A model generated the notes under the pieces. It was not told the origin of the DNA. It did no database searches and saw only the letters and a list, made by a program, of their open reading frames with translations. A stretch of DNA of 62,433 nucleotides, the filler included. It is 3 parts of 3 records of this genome, joined end to end, with 100 filler letters (N's around TTAATTAATTAA, not from the genome) between each part and the next. Parts side by side here need not be neighbours in the genome. Positions count along the whole stretch, not along the records: positions 1 to 24,681 come from SRR20825006_1301; 2 more parts are not named here. One strand, given 5' to 3'. Below are positions 17,154 through 24,243 of the stretch, piece by piece; the stretch's first letter is position 1, and each line of letters starts with the position of its first letter. Made by a program: the position numbers and the translations under genes.

Positions 17154-18578
17154 TTATTTCTCGGGTAACGCATTCAGTATTTCTGAGAAATGCTTATTGA
17201 CATCGAACTTTTCTCCCCTGTTCGTCCAGCCAAACCGTATCACAACGGCATCTTTCGAGGGAACAATCGCAATATGTTGCCCCGCATACCCTGCGGCCAT
17301 AAACAGGTCCTTGGGTGCATCAACTAACATACGGTCCTCTTCATTATCCAGGCTGCCACGATTATGCCAAAACTGTGCGCCATACATACCTTTTGGAGCC
17401 AGCGGTGTAACTGATCGCGTATAAGCCACCCACTCTCTAGACAAGACCTGCTTGTCACCAACCATGCCTTCGTTCAAAAATAATAGACCAAAACGTGCCC
17501 AATCCTGGGCTGTGGCATAAAAGTATGAACTACCAACATGCGAACCGGACACATCCGGCTCGAACACAGCACTTGTCATGCCCACTGGCTTAAAGAAATG
17601 ATCCCAGGCATAGGTGTGTACGTCTTGCAGAGTGCCCCCTACTGCATCAAACAGGATATGAGACAATATGTTTGTCGTTCCCGATGAATAATACCACTTT
17701 GTATCAGGCGCTGTTTCAGCAGGCTTATTCGCTGCGTATTTCGCCATATATCCTTCACGAAACAACATGTTCGTGCTGTCGTTCCCTGGAATATAGGGCT
17801 CTGTAAACTCAAGCCCACTTGTCATATTCAGCAAACTACGAAGCGTAATTTGACCGCGTGCATCACCTTCTGCAGACCACTCTGAAACCGGTGCCGCTTC
17901 GTCTAGCGCAAGCTTATTCCTGGTTACCATTGTTCCAATCAGCGCACTGGCAACACTTTTGCTGGCTGACCACGCTAAAAACCGGCTTTCTTGATTAAAG
18001 CCTTCAGCATATTTCTCTGCAACAATCTTCCCCTGGTAGACAACGAGGACAGCCCGTGTATCAACGGTCTGATGTTCAGAAGCATCAACAAAAGCCGCAT
18101 CTACAGCAGCATCAAGTTTTTTCCAGTCAACGCCTCTACGGTTCCTGTCCAAAGACACTTCATCGCCTAAAGGCCACTCCTGCGCACGTCGGGGCCTAAA
18201 ATTATCAGCGATTTCTTTTGCTTGCTCAAGCAGTTGGTCCGGGGTGCTGTTATCCAACATAAGTGTGCACCCCACCCCGGGGCGGTACAGGGCAGATCGC
18301 TTTACATCGCCCGCAATTGCCGTGGCTATCTTGGTGTTCTGATCAAAGCCAAACTCAACATCCTTTAACAAGGGATATGCAATGGGCCTCAGATCACGTT
18401 GAACCACATTTTCAGGGGTACGGTTTTGCAGGAACACACCTGAACAGGCCAGTTTCGCACCCGCACCCGCCGCCATTTCCTTAGTAATCGTTGCCATGTC
18501 CTGGTGCTCGTTTGCCTGAGCTTGCAAAGATATGGTTCCAACAGCGGTACATACCGCGAGATACAGATACGATTTCAT
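17154..18578 (-). CDS. Secreted serine hydrolase, beta-lactamase / 6-aminohexanoate-dimer hydrolase family
   Basis: Signal peptide, WSASKS (SxxK), LLNMTSGL, YYSSG, DWARFGLL, GYAGQ. Confidence 0.88.
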   Translation of the reverse strand: MKSYLYLAVCTAVGTISLQAQANEHQDMATITKEMAAGAGAKLACSGVFLQNRTPENVVQRDLRPIAYPLLKDVEFGFDQNTKIATAIAGDVKRSALYRPGVGCTLMLDNSTPDQLLEQAKEIADNFRPRRAQEWPLGDEVSLDRNRRGVDWKKLDAAVDAAFVDASEHQTVDTRAVLVVYQGKIVAEKYAEGFNQESRFLAWSASKSVASALIGTMVTRNKLALDEAAPVSEWSAEGDARGQITLRSLLNMTSGLEFTEPYIPGNDSTNMLFREGYMAKYAANKPAETAPDTKWYYSSGTTNILSHILFDAVGGTLQDVHTYAWDHFFKPVGMTSAVFEPDVSGSHVGSSYFYATAQDWARFGLLFLNEGMVGDKQVLSREWVAYTRSVTPLAPKGMYGAQFWHNRGSLDNEEDRMLVDAPKDLFMAAGYAGQHIAIVPSKDAVVIRFGWTNRGEKFDVNKHFSEILNALPEK

Positions 18579-19651
18579 TATTTAATCCTCTCAAGTAAGG
18601 CTTCTAAATCCCGCACAAACCATTCTGGACGCATGGGATGGGCCGCATGAGGGGTGTTTGGATAGTCCACAAGTGTGATCAGGTCGGGGTGCATATCACG
18701 CAGTTTTTCAAAGGACCCCGTCGCGTCAAACAGGTCCCCTGTTGGGTCAATAATGACCATCGGAACTGACAGATTACGGTATGTGATATAAGGATGAACA
18801 CGGCGCCAGGATTGGTGCAGCAAGGGAAGCCTATGGGTTAGGCCGGGATTAATTGCCGCCTCACCAAAGGCATCGAACATTTTGGCATCATCATGATGCA
18901 TGCCAAACGTACCGTCTTTTTTTTCAACCACAAAGGAATGAAGAGCAACCATTGATAATTTGGGAAATTCACCACCCCATCCCGGAACATATAAGTTCGC
19001 CATAAACTTTATTCCTGCAAAACGGTCTTGAAACACTGGCATTTGCATCGCAGGCATATGCTCCAACATGGCTTTCATCTGCTCGTACATAATTTCTGTC
19101 CGGAGCTGCACAGCATCCGCGCCACCATCTTCCAGAACGATACCGAGCACGCGCTCTGGATAGTTTTCATAAAAGGTGGTCGTCACACCTCCCCCCAGAG
19201 AAAGGCCGCCAATAACCGCTTTTTCAATGCCAAGTTTATCCATCATCGCGGCAATATCATCGGCAATATGCGCGAGGGAAAACTCATAGTTGTCAACTTG
19301 AGTGTGACCGTGGCCGCGATATGAAATGGAATAGACATGATAACCGGCTTCAACAAGCTGGTCAGCGACATTCACCAACTCAAATCCTGTGCTACTGTAT
19401 CCATGTGACCAAATAAGCGGCACACCGCTATCGTCTCCCCACTCCAGATAATGCATTTTGATGCCATTGACCTCAATGAAACGCCCATGCTCTCTATCAA
19501 TATTCAAATACTGTTCATATGCTGCAGCTACACGAGCGCGGTTCTCTGAGGTATCTGGCAAAATATCTTGTGGTGAGTTTGCTTGCGCACCAATGGCAAA
19601 CAAGCTCAAGGCCAATGTTATAATTGGGTGAAAAAGACAGTATTTCATCAT
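18578..19651 (-). CDS. Secreted alpha/beta hydrolase
   Basis: Signal peptide, HG oxyanion motif, RGHG, GLSLGG nucleophile elbow, C-terminal His (PHAAH). Confidence 0.88.
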   Translation of the reverse strand: MMKYCLFHPIITLALSLFAIGAQANSPQDILPDTSENRARVAAAYEQYLNIDREHGRFIEVNGIKMHYLEWGDDSGVPLIWSHGYSSTGFELVNVADQLVEAGYHVYSISYRGHGHTQVDNYEFSLAHIADDIAAMMDKLGIEKAVIGGLSLGGGVTTTFYENYPERVLGIVLEDGGADAVQLRTEIMYEQMKAMLEHMPAMQMPVFQDRFAGIKFMANLYVPGWGGEFPKLSMVALHSFVVEKKDGTFGMHHDDAKMFDAFGEAAINPGLTHRLPLLHQSWRRVHPYITYRNLSVPMVIIDPTGDLFDATGSFEKLRDMHPDLITLVDYPNTPHAAHPMRPEWFVRDLEALLERIK

Positions 19652-19794: not shown

Positions 19795-22443
19795 TTAGAA
19801 ATCATATGCGAGATTAAGGCCAATCGTACGCGGACGATTTGTACTCGCTGCCTCAAAAAACGGACCTTGACGGTCGATGCCGTACAGTACCTTTTCGTCA
19901 AATAAGTTGTTTGCAAACAAAGAGATACTATACCCATCGACACTGCGCAGCCCTATACGGGCATCGACGAGACCATAAGATGGCAGAGCAACATCAAGAT
20001 CCAGGTTAAAGTCATTCAATCGCTCGCCAACATATTTGTATGTCACGATACTATATAGCGACAATTCATCGTTCAGCGGCCGAGCCCAATCAGCTGTAAT
20101 CGCAAAACTTTCCTTCGCTGAACCAGGAAGGCGATCACCATTTTTACCTGACACACCACCCGGCACATCTTCTTTCAGTTTAGGGTTGCTGAGCGCACCA
20201 TTGAAAGAAAGGTTGAGAGCTTCGCTGGCTTGGAACACCATGCTGAATTCAAGGCCTGTCACCTGCGCTTTACCAACGTTTTGTGTCGTTCTGCCAAAGG
20301 TAATCGGGTCCTGAACAGTTAGCTGGATGTCTGTATAGTCAATCAAATAAGCTGAAAGGTTGGCGATCAAACGACCATTCAACCATGTTGATTTGATACC
20401 TAACTCATAGTTCCAGAGAGTATCGGAATCAAAAGTGGAAAATTCAGATATTGCTGTTGGCAAATTGAAGCCGCCCCGACGATACCCTGAGGTGGCCGTA
20501 GCATAGGCAAATACATCGTCGTTCAACTGATGCTCTAGCGAAAACTTGAAGGTGTTAACATTTTCACTGGTATCAAAAGGAAGTCCGACAAGGGCACCTG
20601 CTCCGTTAAACGCATTAAAGATACCATCCGCTTTGATGCCCAGCCTGTCAAATTCAACATGAGAGCGCCGATATCCAACCGTGAACTTGGTTGCGGCTGT
20701 AAAGTTCAGGCCCAGTTCACCGTACACCGCTTGTTCTTCACCATTCATCGCATCGATAGAGTCAAGGGCCACATCTCCGTCGGTGAACGGTATTAGACCA
20801 AACAGTATCTGATCAGGTCCTTTATAAATATTGAACTGCTTAATGGCTGTTTCTTCATCCTCATAATAAAGGCCGAATATCCAATCAAAAAAGCCATCGC
20901 TGGAAGACACAAAGCGTAACTCGAGGATATCCGTTTCTGTATCCTGAGAAGGGTTGCCATCGGCTGGAATATCACAGGCACAGCCACTCCTAAAGCCAAC
21001 GAACTCTCTCTGATCAAACGTAAAGTCGAACTTCAGCTTATTGCGTGTCGCCAAAAATGTTGTCGTAAAACCCTCAAAATCTTTTTCGAGTTTTAGATTG
21101 AAAAACTCATACGTATTGTCGCGTTCCTCAACTACACCACCAATTGCAGTACGCGCATTCAGATCAAAGGGAACATCAGGCCCTTCGTCACCTGCTATGT
21201 TCAAATCTCCAGGGGTGCGAGTTGTGGTGACAGAGTTAGGCCCTGCATTCTGGCTCTGATAGAGATAGGTGAAATCAGCGCTGAAGGTGTCTGTTACGTC
21301 CCAGTGTGCCGCAAGTCTGCCACCCCATGTTTTTTCTTCGTTAATATCGTCAATGCCCAACTCCACATTATCGATGAAGCCTGCGTTGTCGTAATAATAG
21401 CCTGTCATGCGGACAGCCAGGTTCTCCGCAACAGGTATATTCAAATATCCATGCCCGCCATAATTGGAGCCGCCGTCCGCAGTATCAGAAAGATAAGTAT
21501 TGAGACCGCCGGCAAAAGCCTCAGTGTCGGGCTTATTGGAAATATAACGCACTATGCCGCCCATGGCACTACGGCCAAAAAGTGTGCCCTGCGGGCCTTT
21601 CAACACCTCCACACGGCTCACATCAACCAGACGGATATCCGCTGCTGTCGAGAAGCTGGTTGTAGTGAGGGCAAAGTCATCAAAATATGTGGCTACCGAC
21701 GAACTGCCTGACTCTTGCGTGGAAGTATTGATATTACGGATGATAATTCTGTTTGAACCGCCACCTTCGTCATTAGCTGTAACGCCGGGCACAGTATCGA
21801 TAAACTGGCCAATACTATTATAGCCTTTTTCTTCAAGGCTTTTGCCGCCAAACGCACTAATGCTCAACGCTGTTGACTGCACGCTCGATTCTCGACGAGT
21901 AGCTGTCACCACAATCTCGTCCAGGTCAAAGGCGCTACTATTCGTAGCATTGTCCTGCGCATGCGCACCCCCTGCACCAAACAGGAAACTGGCAACACTT
22001 GCCAGTAAGCTCTTTTTCAGCTTGCTATTATTCATTGTGTTTTCCTCCCGGCCCTGCTCTGTGGCCTGACCTCGCCCTTTGGCTTCATTGAACGAGATCA
22101 CAATGACCCCGTTTTCGGTTAGGCCGCCGGCAAGGGTTGTATCCCTGAGCATTATCGAGAGTGCTTCGGTCAACGTGTACGTGCCACTTAGTGCCTGAGA
22201 GCGTTCAGTGGCTGTATCACCCGAAGGAATAATTAATGATTTCCCCGTTTCTCGCGCCAAGGCAAAGAGAGCAACATCAATTCGGGAGGAAGGTATATCG
22301 AGAGTATAGTGTTTTAGTGCTGGACCATCAGCGATTGCCGCGACGGCATTTCCACAGCTTAATCCAACGAAGATTAAAACAAACCCAATATACCTGCGTA
22401 GTCCACCCCATTTATCCCTCGGCCGTTGTTTCAAATCCGTCAT
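19795..22443 (-). CDS. TonB-dependent receptor/transducer with N-terminal STN signalling domain
   Basis: Signal peptide, STN-like domain (LDIPSSRIDVALFALARETG), TonB box DEIVVTA, plug motif RVEVLKGPQGTLFG, terminal YDF. Confidence 0.93.
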   Translation of the reverse strand: MTDLKQRPRDKWGGLRRYIGFVLIFVGLSCGNAVAAIADGPALKHYTLDIPSSRIDVALFALARETGKSLIIPSGDTATERSQALSGTYTLTEALSIMLRDTTLAGGLTENGVIVISFNEAKGRGQATEQGREENTMNNSKLKKSLLASVASFLFGAGGAHAQDNATNSSAFDLDEIVVTATRRESSVQSTALSISAFGGKSLEEKGYNSIGQFIDTVPGVTANDEGGGSNRIIIRNINTSTQESGSSSVATYFDDFALTTTSFSTAADIRLVDVSRVEVLKGPQGTLFGRSAMGGIVRYISNKPDTEAFAGGLNTYLSDTADGGSNYGGHGYLNIPVAENLAVRMTGYYYDNAGFIDNVELGIDDINEEKTWGGRLAAHWDVTDTFSADFTYLYQSQNAGPNSVTTTRTPGDLNIAGDEGPDVPFDLNARTAIGGVVEERDNTYEFFNLKLEKDFEGFTTTFLATRNKLKFDFTFDQREFVGFRSGCACDIPADGNPSQDTETDILELRFVSSSDGFFDWIFGLYYEDEETAIKQFNIYKGPDQILFGLIPFTDGDVALDSIDAMNGEEQAVYGELGLNFTAATKFTVGYRRSHVEFDRLGIKADGIFNAFNGAGALVGLPFDTSENVNTFKFSLEHQLNDDVFAYATATSGYRRGGFNLPTAISEFSTFDSDTLWNYELGIKSTWLNGRLIANLSAYLIDYTDIQLTVQDPITFGRTTQNVGKAQVTGLEFSMVFQASEALNLSFNGALSNPKLKEDVPGGVSGKNGDRLPGSAKESFAITADWARPLNDELSLYSIVTYKYVGERLNDFNLDLDVALPSYGLVDARIGLRSVDGYSISLFANNLFDEKVLYGIDRQGPFFEAASTNRPRTIGLNLAYDF

Positions 22444-22458
22444 CTCTAACGACCTATA

Positions 22459-22497
22459 TAATGAGAGCAGGGTGGGTGAAAAAACCGGACATATTTT
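22459..22497 (-). promoter_or_regulatory. Putative ECF-sigma promoter of the receptor gene
   Basis: AAAATATGTCCGGTTT...GCTCTCATTA; same bipartite motif recurs upstream of the sigma gene. Confidence 0.6.
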
Positions 22498-22540
22498 ATA
22501 TTTTTTCTGTCATTAAGGTCTCTGGGCTACTTTTTTCAAT

Positions 22541-23614
22541 CTAACTCGCAGTCAAATGCACAAGGTTGGGTTCTATACGATTTGCCTTGATATTTAAGGC
22601 AGCTTCAACACCCTCCAGCATCAAATCCACATCGCCAATTTGAAGAATTCCTGTAATTTTCTTATCCTTCAGGGCGTCATCCATCACCTTGATCTTTACC
22701 GTCGTATAGCGCGCCACTTCGTCAATGACAGACTGCAGGTCTTCATCGTAGAAAACCAACTGACCTGTAGTCCACGAAAGGCGTTTAGCCAGATCACGCT
22801 CAGAAACAGATTGTTGGACATTGGTTTCGGTCCTGCCTATGTCGGCAGCCCCGCCTTTACTTACCATGATAGGTGTTTCTTGATATACCAAGGCATCCAT
22901 TACATTGTTTTGAGCCATGCTTTTGTCTAACCGCCGGGCAAGTGCAACTCGGCCGTCAGTAACAGTCACACTTACCTTGTGTTCAGCCACACGTACGGCA
23001 AAGCGTGTTCCCACTGCACGAATAACACCATCCGCTGCGTAGACCAGAAATGGCCTCTCCTTATCATGAGCAACATCAAAGATTGCCTCACCAGCAATCA
23101 AACGAACAACGCGTTCTTCCCCGGAATATGACTGCTCAATAATACTATCGGTGTTCAGATGAACCTGTGACCCATCAACCAAATCAACGATCCGCGTCTC
23201 ACCAACAGCTGTGGCATAATAATTTTCCACATCTGCAGATGGAGATGACAAAAAGATACTCGCTGAAACAACGCCGATGAGCAGGACAGCCACTGCAAAA
23301 GCCGTTACCTTAAGGCGCGCCAAAGCCGGACCGAATAGGCCCAGCGGCATCTGACCATTCGCACGCCCCTCCTCCTGTCCTTCCCCTGCCATAAGCGGCG
23401 CAAGCCTGCTTAAAGGTTCATTAAGGCCATACCAAAGGTCCGCCGCCTGCTGAATTGAATCCTTGTTCTTCGGATCTTCCGCCAACCAGTCCGTAAAATC
23501 TGCACGTTCTTCTGCTGTTAAGTCGCCGCGGTCCAACTTGGCGAGCCAATCCGCCGCCTGTAACTTTTGTTTCTCTTCTTGCCGCAAGGGCACGATGCTT
23601 GGATCATCATTCAT
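22541..23614 (-). CDS. fecR: FecR-family anti-sigma/transmembrane sensor
   Basis: AADWLAKL...FTDWLAEDP, TM, YATAVGE...DGSQVHLNT, GEAIFDVAHDKERPF, AVGTRFAV. Confidence 0.92.
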   Translation of the reverse strand: MNDDPSIVPLRQEEKQKLQAADWLAKLDRGDLTAEERADFTDWLAEDPKNKDSIQQAADLWYGLNEPLSRLAPLMAGEGQEEGRANGQMPLGLFGPALARLKVTAFAVAVLLIGVVSASIFLSSPSADVENYYATAVGETRIVDLVDGSQVHLNTDSIIEQSYSGEERVVRLIAGEAIFDVAHDKERPFLVYAADGVIRAVGTRFAVRVAEHKVSVTVTDGRVALARRLDKSMAQNNVMDALVYQETPIMVSKGGAADIGRTETNVQQSVSERDLAKRLSWTTGQLVFYDEDLQSVIDEVARYTTVKIKVMDDALKDKKITGILQIGDVDLMLEGVEAALNIKANRIEPNLVHLTAS

Positions 23615-24206
23615 TTCTGTCGCCTTTACCATTTCTGGCATGCTTACCCGCCGCTGTTTTCTTGTTTATTTCTTTTGCCGAAACCTGCCCCATAAATTCC
23701 ACACCATAACCGCGCCCTGCCATGACATCCTGGCAGCGCTTAATGCCACGTGCGAAATATTTCTCGACCGTATTAACGGACAAGCCCATTTTCTTGGCTA
23801 CTTGCTTGTGCGAAAAACCGTATACTCTGCGCAATAAAATCGCCCGTCTGTGCGATTGGGGTAGCGTTTCTAAAGCCTCCCAAAACACCTCTAACATTTG
23901 TTTATAATATAGCTCTCGGTCAATTGGGGCTGTATGCGATTCCAGAATAGCTTCATCAATTTCCCATTGTACTTCTCGGGCACTGCGTTCCTGGTCCCGA
24001 AAAACAATGTTGCGAGACACCGTGAACAAATAGCTCTTGGGGTGATCAATTTCGCGGGTTTCATTTGCTTCCAATGTACGTGTCAAAGATTCTTGTAATA
24101 TGTCATCAACATCTGATGGCCTTACAGACAACCTCAACAGACCGCGCACCAGAACATCCCGGTATTCGGCAAAGGTACCCAGTATCCTATTTTTACGCTT
24201 CGACAT
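23607..24206 (-). CDS. ECF sigma factor (FecI-like)
   Basis: DVDDILQE, PKSYLFTVSRN, region 4 RRAILLRRVYGFSHKQVAKKMGLSVNTVEK; ATG 24206 preferred (SD GGAAAGG). Confidence 0.9.
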   Translation of the reverse strand: MSKRKNRILGTFAEYRDVLVRGLLRLSVRPSDVDDILQESLTRTLEANETREIDHPKSYLFTVSRNIVFRDQERSAREVQWEIDEAILESHTAPIDRELYYKQMLEVFWEALETLPQSHRRAILLRRVYGFSHKQVAKKMGLSVNTVEKYFARGIKRCQDVMAGRGYGVEFMGQVSAKEINKKTAAGKHARNGKGDRNE

Positions 24207-24243
24207 CGCACCCTTTCCATCGCCCTGATACACCGCCACTATG

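Follow-up and report, generated by a model that had tools for sequence, protein, structure and literature searches.

How many receptors are encoded by a single gene for a TonB-dependent transducer? The question is raised by a receptor gene on the minus strand of a 62,433-nucleotide stretch of DNA, here called the window, which was joined from three parts of one genome with filler letters between them and whose positions 1 to 24,681 come from SRR20825006_1301. Three consecutive minus-strand genes encode an extracytoplasmic function (ECF) sigma factor, a FecR-like regulator and the TonB-dependent receptor, in this order. The receptor gene is accordingly read as the putative transducer of a cell-surface signalling system composed of ECF sigma factor, FecR-like regulator and receptor, for which activation by a ligand is predicted. 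Behind the STN-type signalling domain and a short polar linker, the same reading frame was found to hold a second start: a Shine-Dalgarno (SD) sequence GGGAGGA at 22043-22049, a 7-nt spacer (AAACACA) and an in-frame ATG at 22035, all of which a sequence-only reading of the window had located exactly to the base. That reading had proposed three explanations, namely internal initiation giving an abundant transport-only isoform and a rarer signalling isoform, cleavage of the long form by signal peptidase, or a recent fusion of an STN gene to a receptor gene. Based on the comparison of related loci described below, in-frame internal initiation is considered the probable one, by which the gene would give an STN-less receptor beside a rarer full-length transducer.

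The internal start and its conservation

A set of 98 loci was assembled from the relatives of the nearest genome (G001), a class sample, a phylum sample and direct fetches. A profile, A1, was built from the window region and 15 relatives (16 sequences) and aligned to the six-frame open segments of these loci. The alignment gave 55 non-duplicate segments spanning the STN domain to the TonB box, 41 with the hydrophobic segment that follows the internal start and 14 without it, in which a plain linker is found. The 41 loci fall into 38 clusters at >70% context identity and have diverged to about 30-45% identity, so far that saturation of synonymous sites is to be expected. The codon in the column of Met137 is ATG in 21 loci, GTG in 15 and TTG in two, so that 38 of the 41 are start-capable there, and in the remaining three a start-capable codon lies 1-7 codons off. 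A search of homologues for a conserved SD, Met and signal peptide after STN, which had been suggested along with the sequence-only reading, thus returned the element at the same column in 38/41 loci. Furthermore, every Val codon at this column is GTG (15/15, or 13/13 after collapsing three near-identical pairs), compared with a GTG share of 28% among 1641 other Val codons of the same open reading frames (ORFs). Since protein-level constraint cannot explain a GTG-only Val, the bias points to a conserved translation start.

The codons ahead of the internal start were examined in the same manner, with an SD core defined as GGAG, GAGG or AGGA at 4-16 nt upstream of the start. Such a core is present in 36 of the 41 loci. 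The residues encoded there are mostly Arg/Gly-Glu-Glu/Asp, and the choice among their codons spells the SD: within the SD window, 20/23 Arg codons are CGG or AGG (background 22%) and 34/52 Glu codons are GAG (background 36%). The combination of a start-capable codon with a preceding SD core is rare elsewhere, occurring at only 0.2% of the in-frame codons of the same ORF set (45/22221). A natural control is provided by the 14 plain-linker STN relatives, in which a start-capable codon was found in 4/14 and an SD core in 3/14, with a mean duplex energy of -3.13 kcal/mol. On this comparative evidence, the internal element is conserved and is neither a chance occurrence nor a recent relic.

The strength of the two ribosome-binding sites was estimated from duplex energies with the canonical anti-SD. 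In the window gene, read on a locus that is 100% identical to it over the 198-aa query (L001), the upstream start has an energy of -3.2 kcal/mol and the internal start one of -10.3 kcal/mol, which bears out the earlier claim of a weaker upstream SD. Across the 41 loci, the internal site has a mean of -8.9 kcal/mol, as against -1.83 at the other in-frame start-capable codons (1046). In 38/41 loci the first upstream start has a weaker SD than the internal one, and in 32/41 the internal SD surpasses every upstream candidate; the median energies are -10.3 kcal/mol for the internal site, -3.2 for the first upstream site and -5.8 for the best upstream site. These predicted strengths would agree with a short form that predominates over the long one. 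Internal initiation as proposed in the sequence-only reading therefore gains strong comparative support at the nucleotide level, from the start codon, the GTG-only Val, the GGAG-spelling codon bias and the SD strength; the use of both starts and the abundance of the two isoforms retain the status of predictions.

Four sequencing runs guessed to be RNA were also searched. Two gave no match, one gave a contig of 327 nt covering 21811-22028 (218 nt), and one matched the 3' end of the FecR-like gene; neither a start nor an expression level is readable from them. The 327-nt contig (run X17) continues into unrelated letters at both ends beyond 21811-22028. The letters past 22028 resemble what we take to be the reverse complement of a template-switch oligo as used for cDNA libraries. 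Position 22028, located 7 nt past the A of the internal ATG, would then be a cDNA 5' end, and from this single contig no conclusion is drawn.

At the protein level, the arrangement extends well beyond the loci for which DNA was compared. Among the protein matches to residues 1-260, 41 have an N-terminal extension ahead of the TonB box; in a tally made by eye from the printed sequences, 34 of these carry a Lys/Arg-rich stretch, a hydrophobic stretch and an Ala-x-Ala-like end before the TonB box, and seven have a plain linker. Several of the 34 have Val in place of Met137. A profile search of 1.84 billion cluster representatives returned 18110 matches at E<=1e-3, 2126 at 1e-10 and 229 at 1e-30, of which the weaker ones may share only the STN domain or the TonB box. 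The hydrophobic segment was observed, in protein sequence, in all of the best 150 representatives (150/150), and at the aligned column these 150 hold Met in 77 and Val in 32. When the 16 residues ahead of the uncharged stretch are considered, Met occurs in 113 of them, Val only in 35 and Leu or Ile only in two, leaving none without any of these residues; among 4177 control windows, 12.5% hold Met. At the DNA level, the design is present in the class to which the window belongs; outside that class, four genomes from another class of this phylum (G713, G465, G822 and G656) have it too. It occurs with at least two barrel types, in proteins of about 880 aa and of about 1000-1100 aa.

The two signal peptides, the long form and the rival readings

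The product of the internal start would begin with a second signal peptide, residues 137-162, which reads MNNSKLKKSLLASVASFLFGAGGAHA and is followed by Q163. It has three Lys in its n-region and an uncharged stretch, and it ends in AHA|Q; a positively charged n-region, an uncharged h-region and small residues at -3 and -1, the features of a substrate of Sec and signal peptidase I, are thus all found in it. Among the 41 loci, the n-region has a net charge of at least +2 in 38, the uncharged stretch is 21 residues long at the median and the whole peptide 26, small residues occupy -3 and -1 in 41/41, and Gln stands at +1 in 27/41. The layout of the Sec-type signal peptide that had been recognised ahead of the TonB box therefore recurs in the relatives, and its export and cleavage are predicted. 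The mean pairwise identity, taken from a 38-locus alignment with model positions 1-22 for signal peptide 1 and 121-135 for signal peptide 2, is 33% for the h-region of signal peptide 2 and 16% for signal peptide 1, compared with 38% for STN and 16% for the flanking linker. An invariant glycine, G156, lies within the h-region of signal peptide 2 in A1. The Kyte-Doolittle hydrophobicity over 19 residues reaches the transmembrane threshold of 1.6 in only 7/41 loci, and because so few reach it, signal peptide 2 in the long form more likely passes through Sec than stops transfer. The segment EIVVTAT that follows is one which we take to be the TonB box, and its I177, V179 and T180 are invariant or nearly so in A1.

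Is the long form real? As far as sequence tells, it is, because the STN fold is confident and conserved, the frame is open, a first signal peptide precedes it, a FecR-like gene is its neighbour and a search of proteins of 30-484 aa found no stand-alone homologue. In an AlphaFold model of residues 1-198, the STN region (residues 45-118) has a predicted local distance difference test (pLDDT) score of about 90-96. The best Foldseek match of this domain is the signalling domain of PupB (6ovk_B; TM-score on the target 0.83, root-mean-square deviation 1.6 A), and the signalling domains of FpvA, FoxA, FecA and PupA are matched as well. When A1 was compared with the PDB, PupA (2a02) was matched at E 4.5e-11, FpvA at 5e-9 and FecA at 0.006, together with HasR, PupB, FemA and FoxA. 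The Pfam STN model scores the window protein at 15.2 bits, below its threshold of 28.4, and matches 14/16 of the aligned relatives at E<=1. The STN domain named in the sequence-only reading is thus upheld by its fold and by the profile match to solved domains, but not by the Pfam model at its own threshold. Residues I50, G87, A94, L95, L108 and G112 are invariant in A1. The frame is open from STN into the barrel in all 41 segments, which had been cut stop-to-stop, and signal peptide 1 was found in the relatives. Of the 29 loci with 900 nt or more of flank, 28 have a FecR-like ORF directly upstream on the same strand. When proteins of 30-484 aa were searched at E<=1e-3, with word-based sensitivity only, residues 1-175 matched no shorter protein standing alone.

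One additional locus outside the 41 segments (L039, G023:C92:18800-20300, minus strand) has an in-frame TGA inside STN, with the SD-like GEKEE codons, the ATG, signal peptide 2 and the receptor intact. It may be a natural allele of the short form only or a sequencing error, and as an anecdote it is consistent with a short gene able to stand alone.

The N-terminal module behaves as a cassette. Over residues 164-882, the closest barrel relative is P0016 at 84% identity, and the N-terminal module of P0016 is unrelated and has a plain linker. Conversely, P0006, P0007, P0008, P0015 and P0026 share 54-66% identity over residues 36-163, including signal peptide 2, and 24-30% over the barrel. From this contrast, the unit of STN, linker, SD, start and signal peptide 2 moves as a block and has become joined to unrelated barrels, the junction falling after the cleavage site of signal peptide 2 and before the TonB box. 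A unit of sigma factor, FecR and STN that ends in a ribosome-binding site and an export signal could thereby join any receptor gene and leave the expression of the receptor undisturbed.

Against this background the other readings can be weighed. The recent STN-receptor fusion of the sequence-only reading is rejected, since the element is kept in relatives of about 30-45% identity and in 150/150 of the best representatives. A neutral relic, in which an STN gene was fused to a complete receptor gene whose old ribosome-binding site, start and signal peptide persist unused in the linker, is very unlikely on the same data: an unused site would decay, and here the synonymous positions are constrained while the flanking linker and signal peptide 1 (16% each) drift. 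Such a relic would agree with the frequent exchange of modules that is evident and with the resemblance of the segment to the N-terminal signal peptides of STN-less relatives such as P0080 and P0046. Little probability is likewise left to a structural linker, by which the hydrophobic segment would serve the long form only, as a membrane-associating or partner-binding element, and the SD-like sequence would be a translational pause for the folding or export of STN. Signal peptide 2 is indeed conserved about as well as STN (33% vs 38%), and a segment that reaches the transmembrane threshold in so few loci could traverse Sec and stay periplasmic. A pause site, however, needs no start codon 5-9 nt downstream, no protein-level reason is seen for Val being GTG only and Leu being TTG only at one column, and the complete n-h-c layout, with Q at +1, is what a cleaved signal peptide would show. 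Hardly any credence is given to an annotation artefact, in which the STN part would be untranslated or a separate decaying gene and 22035 the true start. The weak upstream SD and the stop inside STN in L039 would accord with it; against it stand the confident and conserved STN fold with its invariant residues, the frame open in 41 segments, the FecR-like partner in 28/29 loci, signal peptide 1 in the relatives, and the search of shorter proteins (30-484 aa) in which no stand-alone homologue of residues 1-175 was found. The conservation data thus argue against the relic, structural-linker and artefact readings alike.

A different possibility is that the long form is the main product and a pro-protein with two signal peptides, in which signal peptidase I cuts at AHA|Q and frees a periplasmic STN that binds the FecR-like regulator, together with an STN-less receptor, the internal start being secondary. 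The cleavage motif at -3/-1 kept in 41/41 loci, the better conservation of signal peptide 2 than of signal peptide 1, and an STN-receptor frame open in 41 segments, as a need for joint synthesis would require, all speak for this pro-protein, but it is considered unlikely. Signal peptidase I needs its substrate in the N-in/C-out orientation, and a segment that follows a translocated domain reaches the membrane N-out, so that the proposed cleavage is topologically awkward. Furthermore, the GTG-only Val, the GGAG-spelling codon bias and the SD strength are left unexplained, the cleavage motif is required by the short form anyway, and the segment is modelled by AlphaFold at low confidence (pLDDT <50). 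Also in favour of the pro-protein, FoxA of P. aeruginosa is reported in two receptor sizes, with a protective role of the free domain, but its cleavage is ascribed to a periplasmic protease rather than to signal peptidase (PMC11637429). A combination of the two mechanisms, also given a low probability, would make the gene both dual-start and a polyprotein with two signal peptides: a freed, soluble STN would guard the FecR-like regulator as long as ligand is absent, extra receptor would come from the internal start, and the sigma-FecR-STN-second-start unit would be a portable cassette recombinable before any TonB-dependent receptor. Such a cassette would fit any receptor because it carries the receptor's ribosome-binding site and export signal.

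A separately encoded STN was observed in the nearest genome. In L103 (G001:C1:3270057-3273158), a stand-alone ORF of 132 aa encodes a signal peptide and an STN domain, followed by a stop and no barrel. Its STN closely resembles that of the receptor in L102, located about 3 kb upstream of L103. A free periplasmic STN of this kind would bear on the modulation of FecR-type regulators by free STN.

Several points weigh against internal initiation or temper the figures brought forward for it. The loci are kin, many of one genus, and formal p-values overstate their independence. Both the 41 of 55 segments and the 150 of 150 representatives derive from searches seeded with element-bearing sequences, and these shares are not a prevalence. 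The other four STN receptors examined in G001 have plain linkers, so the design is not a general one. The duplex energies were calculated with the canonical anti-SD, from which the anti-SD of this genome's 16S rRNA may differ, and the features of the signal peptide were scored in the 41 loci by a crude rule of the analysis's own. In the long form, translocation could be hindered by a hydrophobic segment lying inside the precursor. The roughly twofold conservation of signal peptide 2 over signal peptide 1 is unusual for a signal peptide, exceeds the need of a pure export signal and hints at a further role in the long form; a dual constraint, as signal peptide and as harmless linker, may also account for this conservation. 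The AlphaFold model has no bearing on a structural role, with signal peptide 2 and all that follows it in residues 1-198 at pLDDT <50.

Gene order and features of the locus

The features of the locus are collected in the table, from the ECF sigma factor gene to the two hydrolase genes downstream of the receptor.

Table. Features of the transducer locus in the window, in minus-strand order, with the ground for each assignment.
Feature	Position	Strand	Basis
ECF sigma factor gene, 210 aa, FecI-like	23607..24239	minus	Pfam Sigma70_r2, Sigma70_r4_2, Sigma70_ECF; NCBIfam sigma70-ECF and sub-threshold FecI
FecR-like anti-sigma / sigma regulator gene, 366 aa	22541..23641	minus	Pfam DUF4880, FecR, FecR_C; NCBIfam FecR, E 2e-30, under cut-off
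Receptor long ORF, 882 aa: signal peptide 1, STN, internal start and signal peptide 2, TonB box, plug, barrel	19795..22443	minus	translation; Pfam
Signal peptide 1, about residues 1-35, ...GNAVA|A, weak SD before it	22339..22443	minus	translation; AlphaFold helix 13-37
STN-type signalling domain, residues 45-118	22090..22311	minus	AlphaFold, Foldseek, profile against PDB
Internal SD GGGAGGA, within R-E-E codons, 7 nt ahead of internal ATG	22043..22049	minus	sequence
Internal in-frame start codon ATG = Met137	22033..22035	minus	sequence
Signal peptide 2, residues 137-162, AHA|Q	21958..22035	minus	translation
Nested short ORF, predicted precursor of 746 aa: signal peptide 2, TonB box, plug, barrel, without STN	19795..22035	minus	inferred from conserved internal start
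TonB-box-like EIVVTAT, residues 176-182, 13 residues past AHA|Q	21898..21918	minus	translation
Plug domain, residues 188-297	21553..21882	minus	Pfam PF07715, E 1e-17
Beta-barrel, residues 388-882	19798..21282	minus	Pfam PF00593, E 1e-31, match over residues 388-847
Alpha/beta hydrolase gene, downstream of receptor	18578-19651	minus	Pfam Abhydrolase_1
Beta-lactamase-family serine hydrolase gene, downstream of receptor	17154-18578	minus	Pfam Beta-lactamase

The 3' end of the sigma factor ORF overlaps the start of the FecR-like ORF by 35 nt (23607-23641), with the first possible start taken for the latter. This suggests either translational coupling of the two genes or a later true start of the FecR-like gene. 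On the other side of the receptor, the two hydrolase genes probably share its operon, as judged from strand and spacing. Their presence at 17154-19651 suggests that an organic ester, amide or oligomer, rather than a carrier of iron, is both sensed and imported by the system. A promoter scan of 21800-22700 found no (0) sigma-70-like promoter, ECF promoters being outside its coverage.

Two further candidates were set aside. A terminator-like hairpin at 22006..21988, within the coding sequence of signal peptide 2, is probably a chance occurrence, with three such sites found and 1.1 expected; its stem of 8 bp (21988-22006) is followed by a T-rich run, and the codons used by relatives for those residues differ and are non-palindromic. 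A lipoprotein reading of signal peptide 1, from the Cys in GLSC, was dropped, as the close homologues P0004 and P0005 are without this Cys.

Proposed mechanism and comparison with known systems

By the proposed mechanism, the weak upstream start would give a full-length precursor consisting of signal peptide 1, STN, linker, TonB box, plug and barrel, and this form would be the one able to contact the FecR-like regulator. The strong internal SD and ATG would give a precursor that starts with signal peptide 2, which upon export and cleavage at AHA|Q would become an ordinary STN-less TonB-dependent transporter. A single mRNA would then yield few signalling and many transport-only receptors, and the two ribosome-binding sites would determine their ratio. 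The arrangement may plausibly be of benefit by uncoupling the bulk capacity for transport from the number of STN domains; with most receptors lacking STN, signalling would stay sensitive as transport capacity rises. For Pseudomonas, it is reported that signalling is blocked when free signalling domains are overproduced, since these protect the anti-sigma factor (PMC11637429).

Descriptions of cell-surface signalling usually assume a single receptor species for both transport and signalling. A sizeable subfamily, comprising the 229 representatives at E<=1e-30 and with the segment in 150/150 of the best, may instead encode two receptor species per gene at a ratio fixed by sequence. If so, the number of signalling domains per cell would be set apart from transport capacity, which would bear on the debate over protection versus exposure of the anti-sigma factor. 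For annotation, gene callers give the long form only, and proteomics searches would miss the N-terminus of the short form. Exchange of the STN-plus-second-start unit among unrelated barrels also suggests a simple route by which plain transporters are placed under ECF control.

How does this gene compare with what has been described? Among the papers listed in searches of the openly available literature, without supplements, no description was found of a TonB-dependent receptor or transducer with an internal or alternative start or with a second or internal signal peptide, in agreement with the earlier remark that no characterised example was known. We also know of no described case of an internal start directly followed by its own export signal. 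The parts, a transducer, internal initiation and a signal peptide, are each known; their combination and its conservation appear undescribed in that literature.

The gene shares with FecA of E. coli, FpvA, FoxA, PupA and PupB of Pseudomonas and HasR of Serratia the ECF sigma factor and FecR-like genes upstream, the fold of the signalling domain, the TonB box, the plug and the barrel. It differs from transducers of the FecA/FpvA type in that an entire SD, a start codon and a signal peptide of Sec type lie within its linker; to our knowledge, the characterised TonB-dependent transducers have plain linkers. Internal initiation in frame is established in bacteria by infB, which gives IF2 alpha and beta, and by clpB and cheA. 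The receptor gene resembles these in having a second in-frame SD and start, with an N-terminally shortened isoform without the regulatory domain to be expected, and it differs from them in that its internal start leads straight into an export signal of its own, by which both isoforms would be secreted independently. In-frame internal translation initiation in bacteria has also been surveyed genome-wide (bioRxiv 10.1101/520783). With FoxA, the likeness lies in receptor forms with and without the signalling domain and in the importance of the number of free or tethered domains for protection of the anti-sigma factor (PMC11637429). The difference lies in the origin of the short form, which for FoxA is proposed there to arise after export through a periplasmic protease, whereas the short form of the present gene would come directly from the ribosome or, with lower probability, from cutting by signal peptidase.

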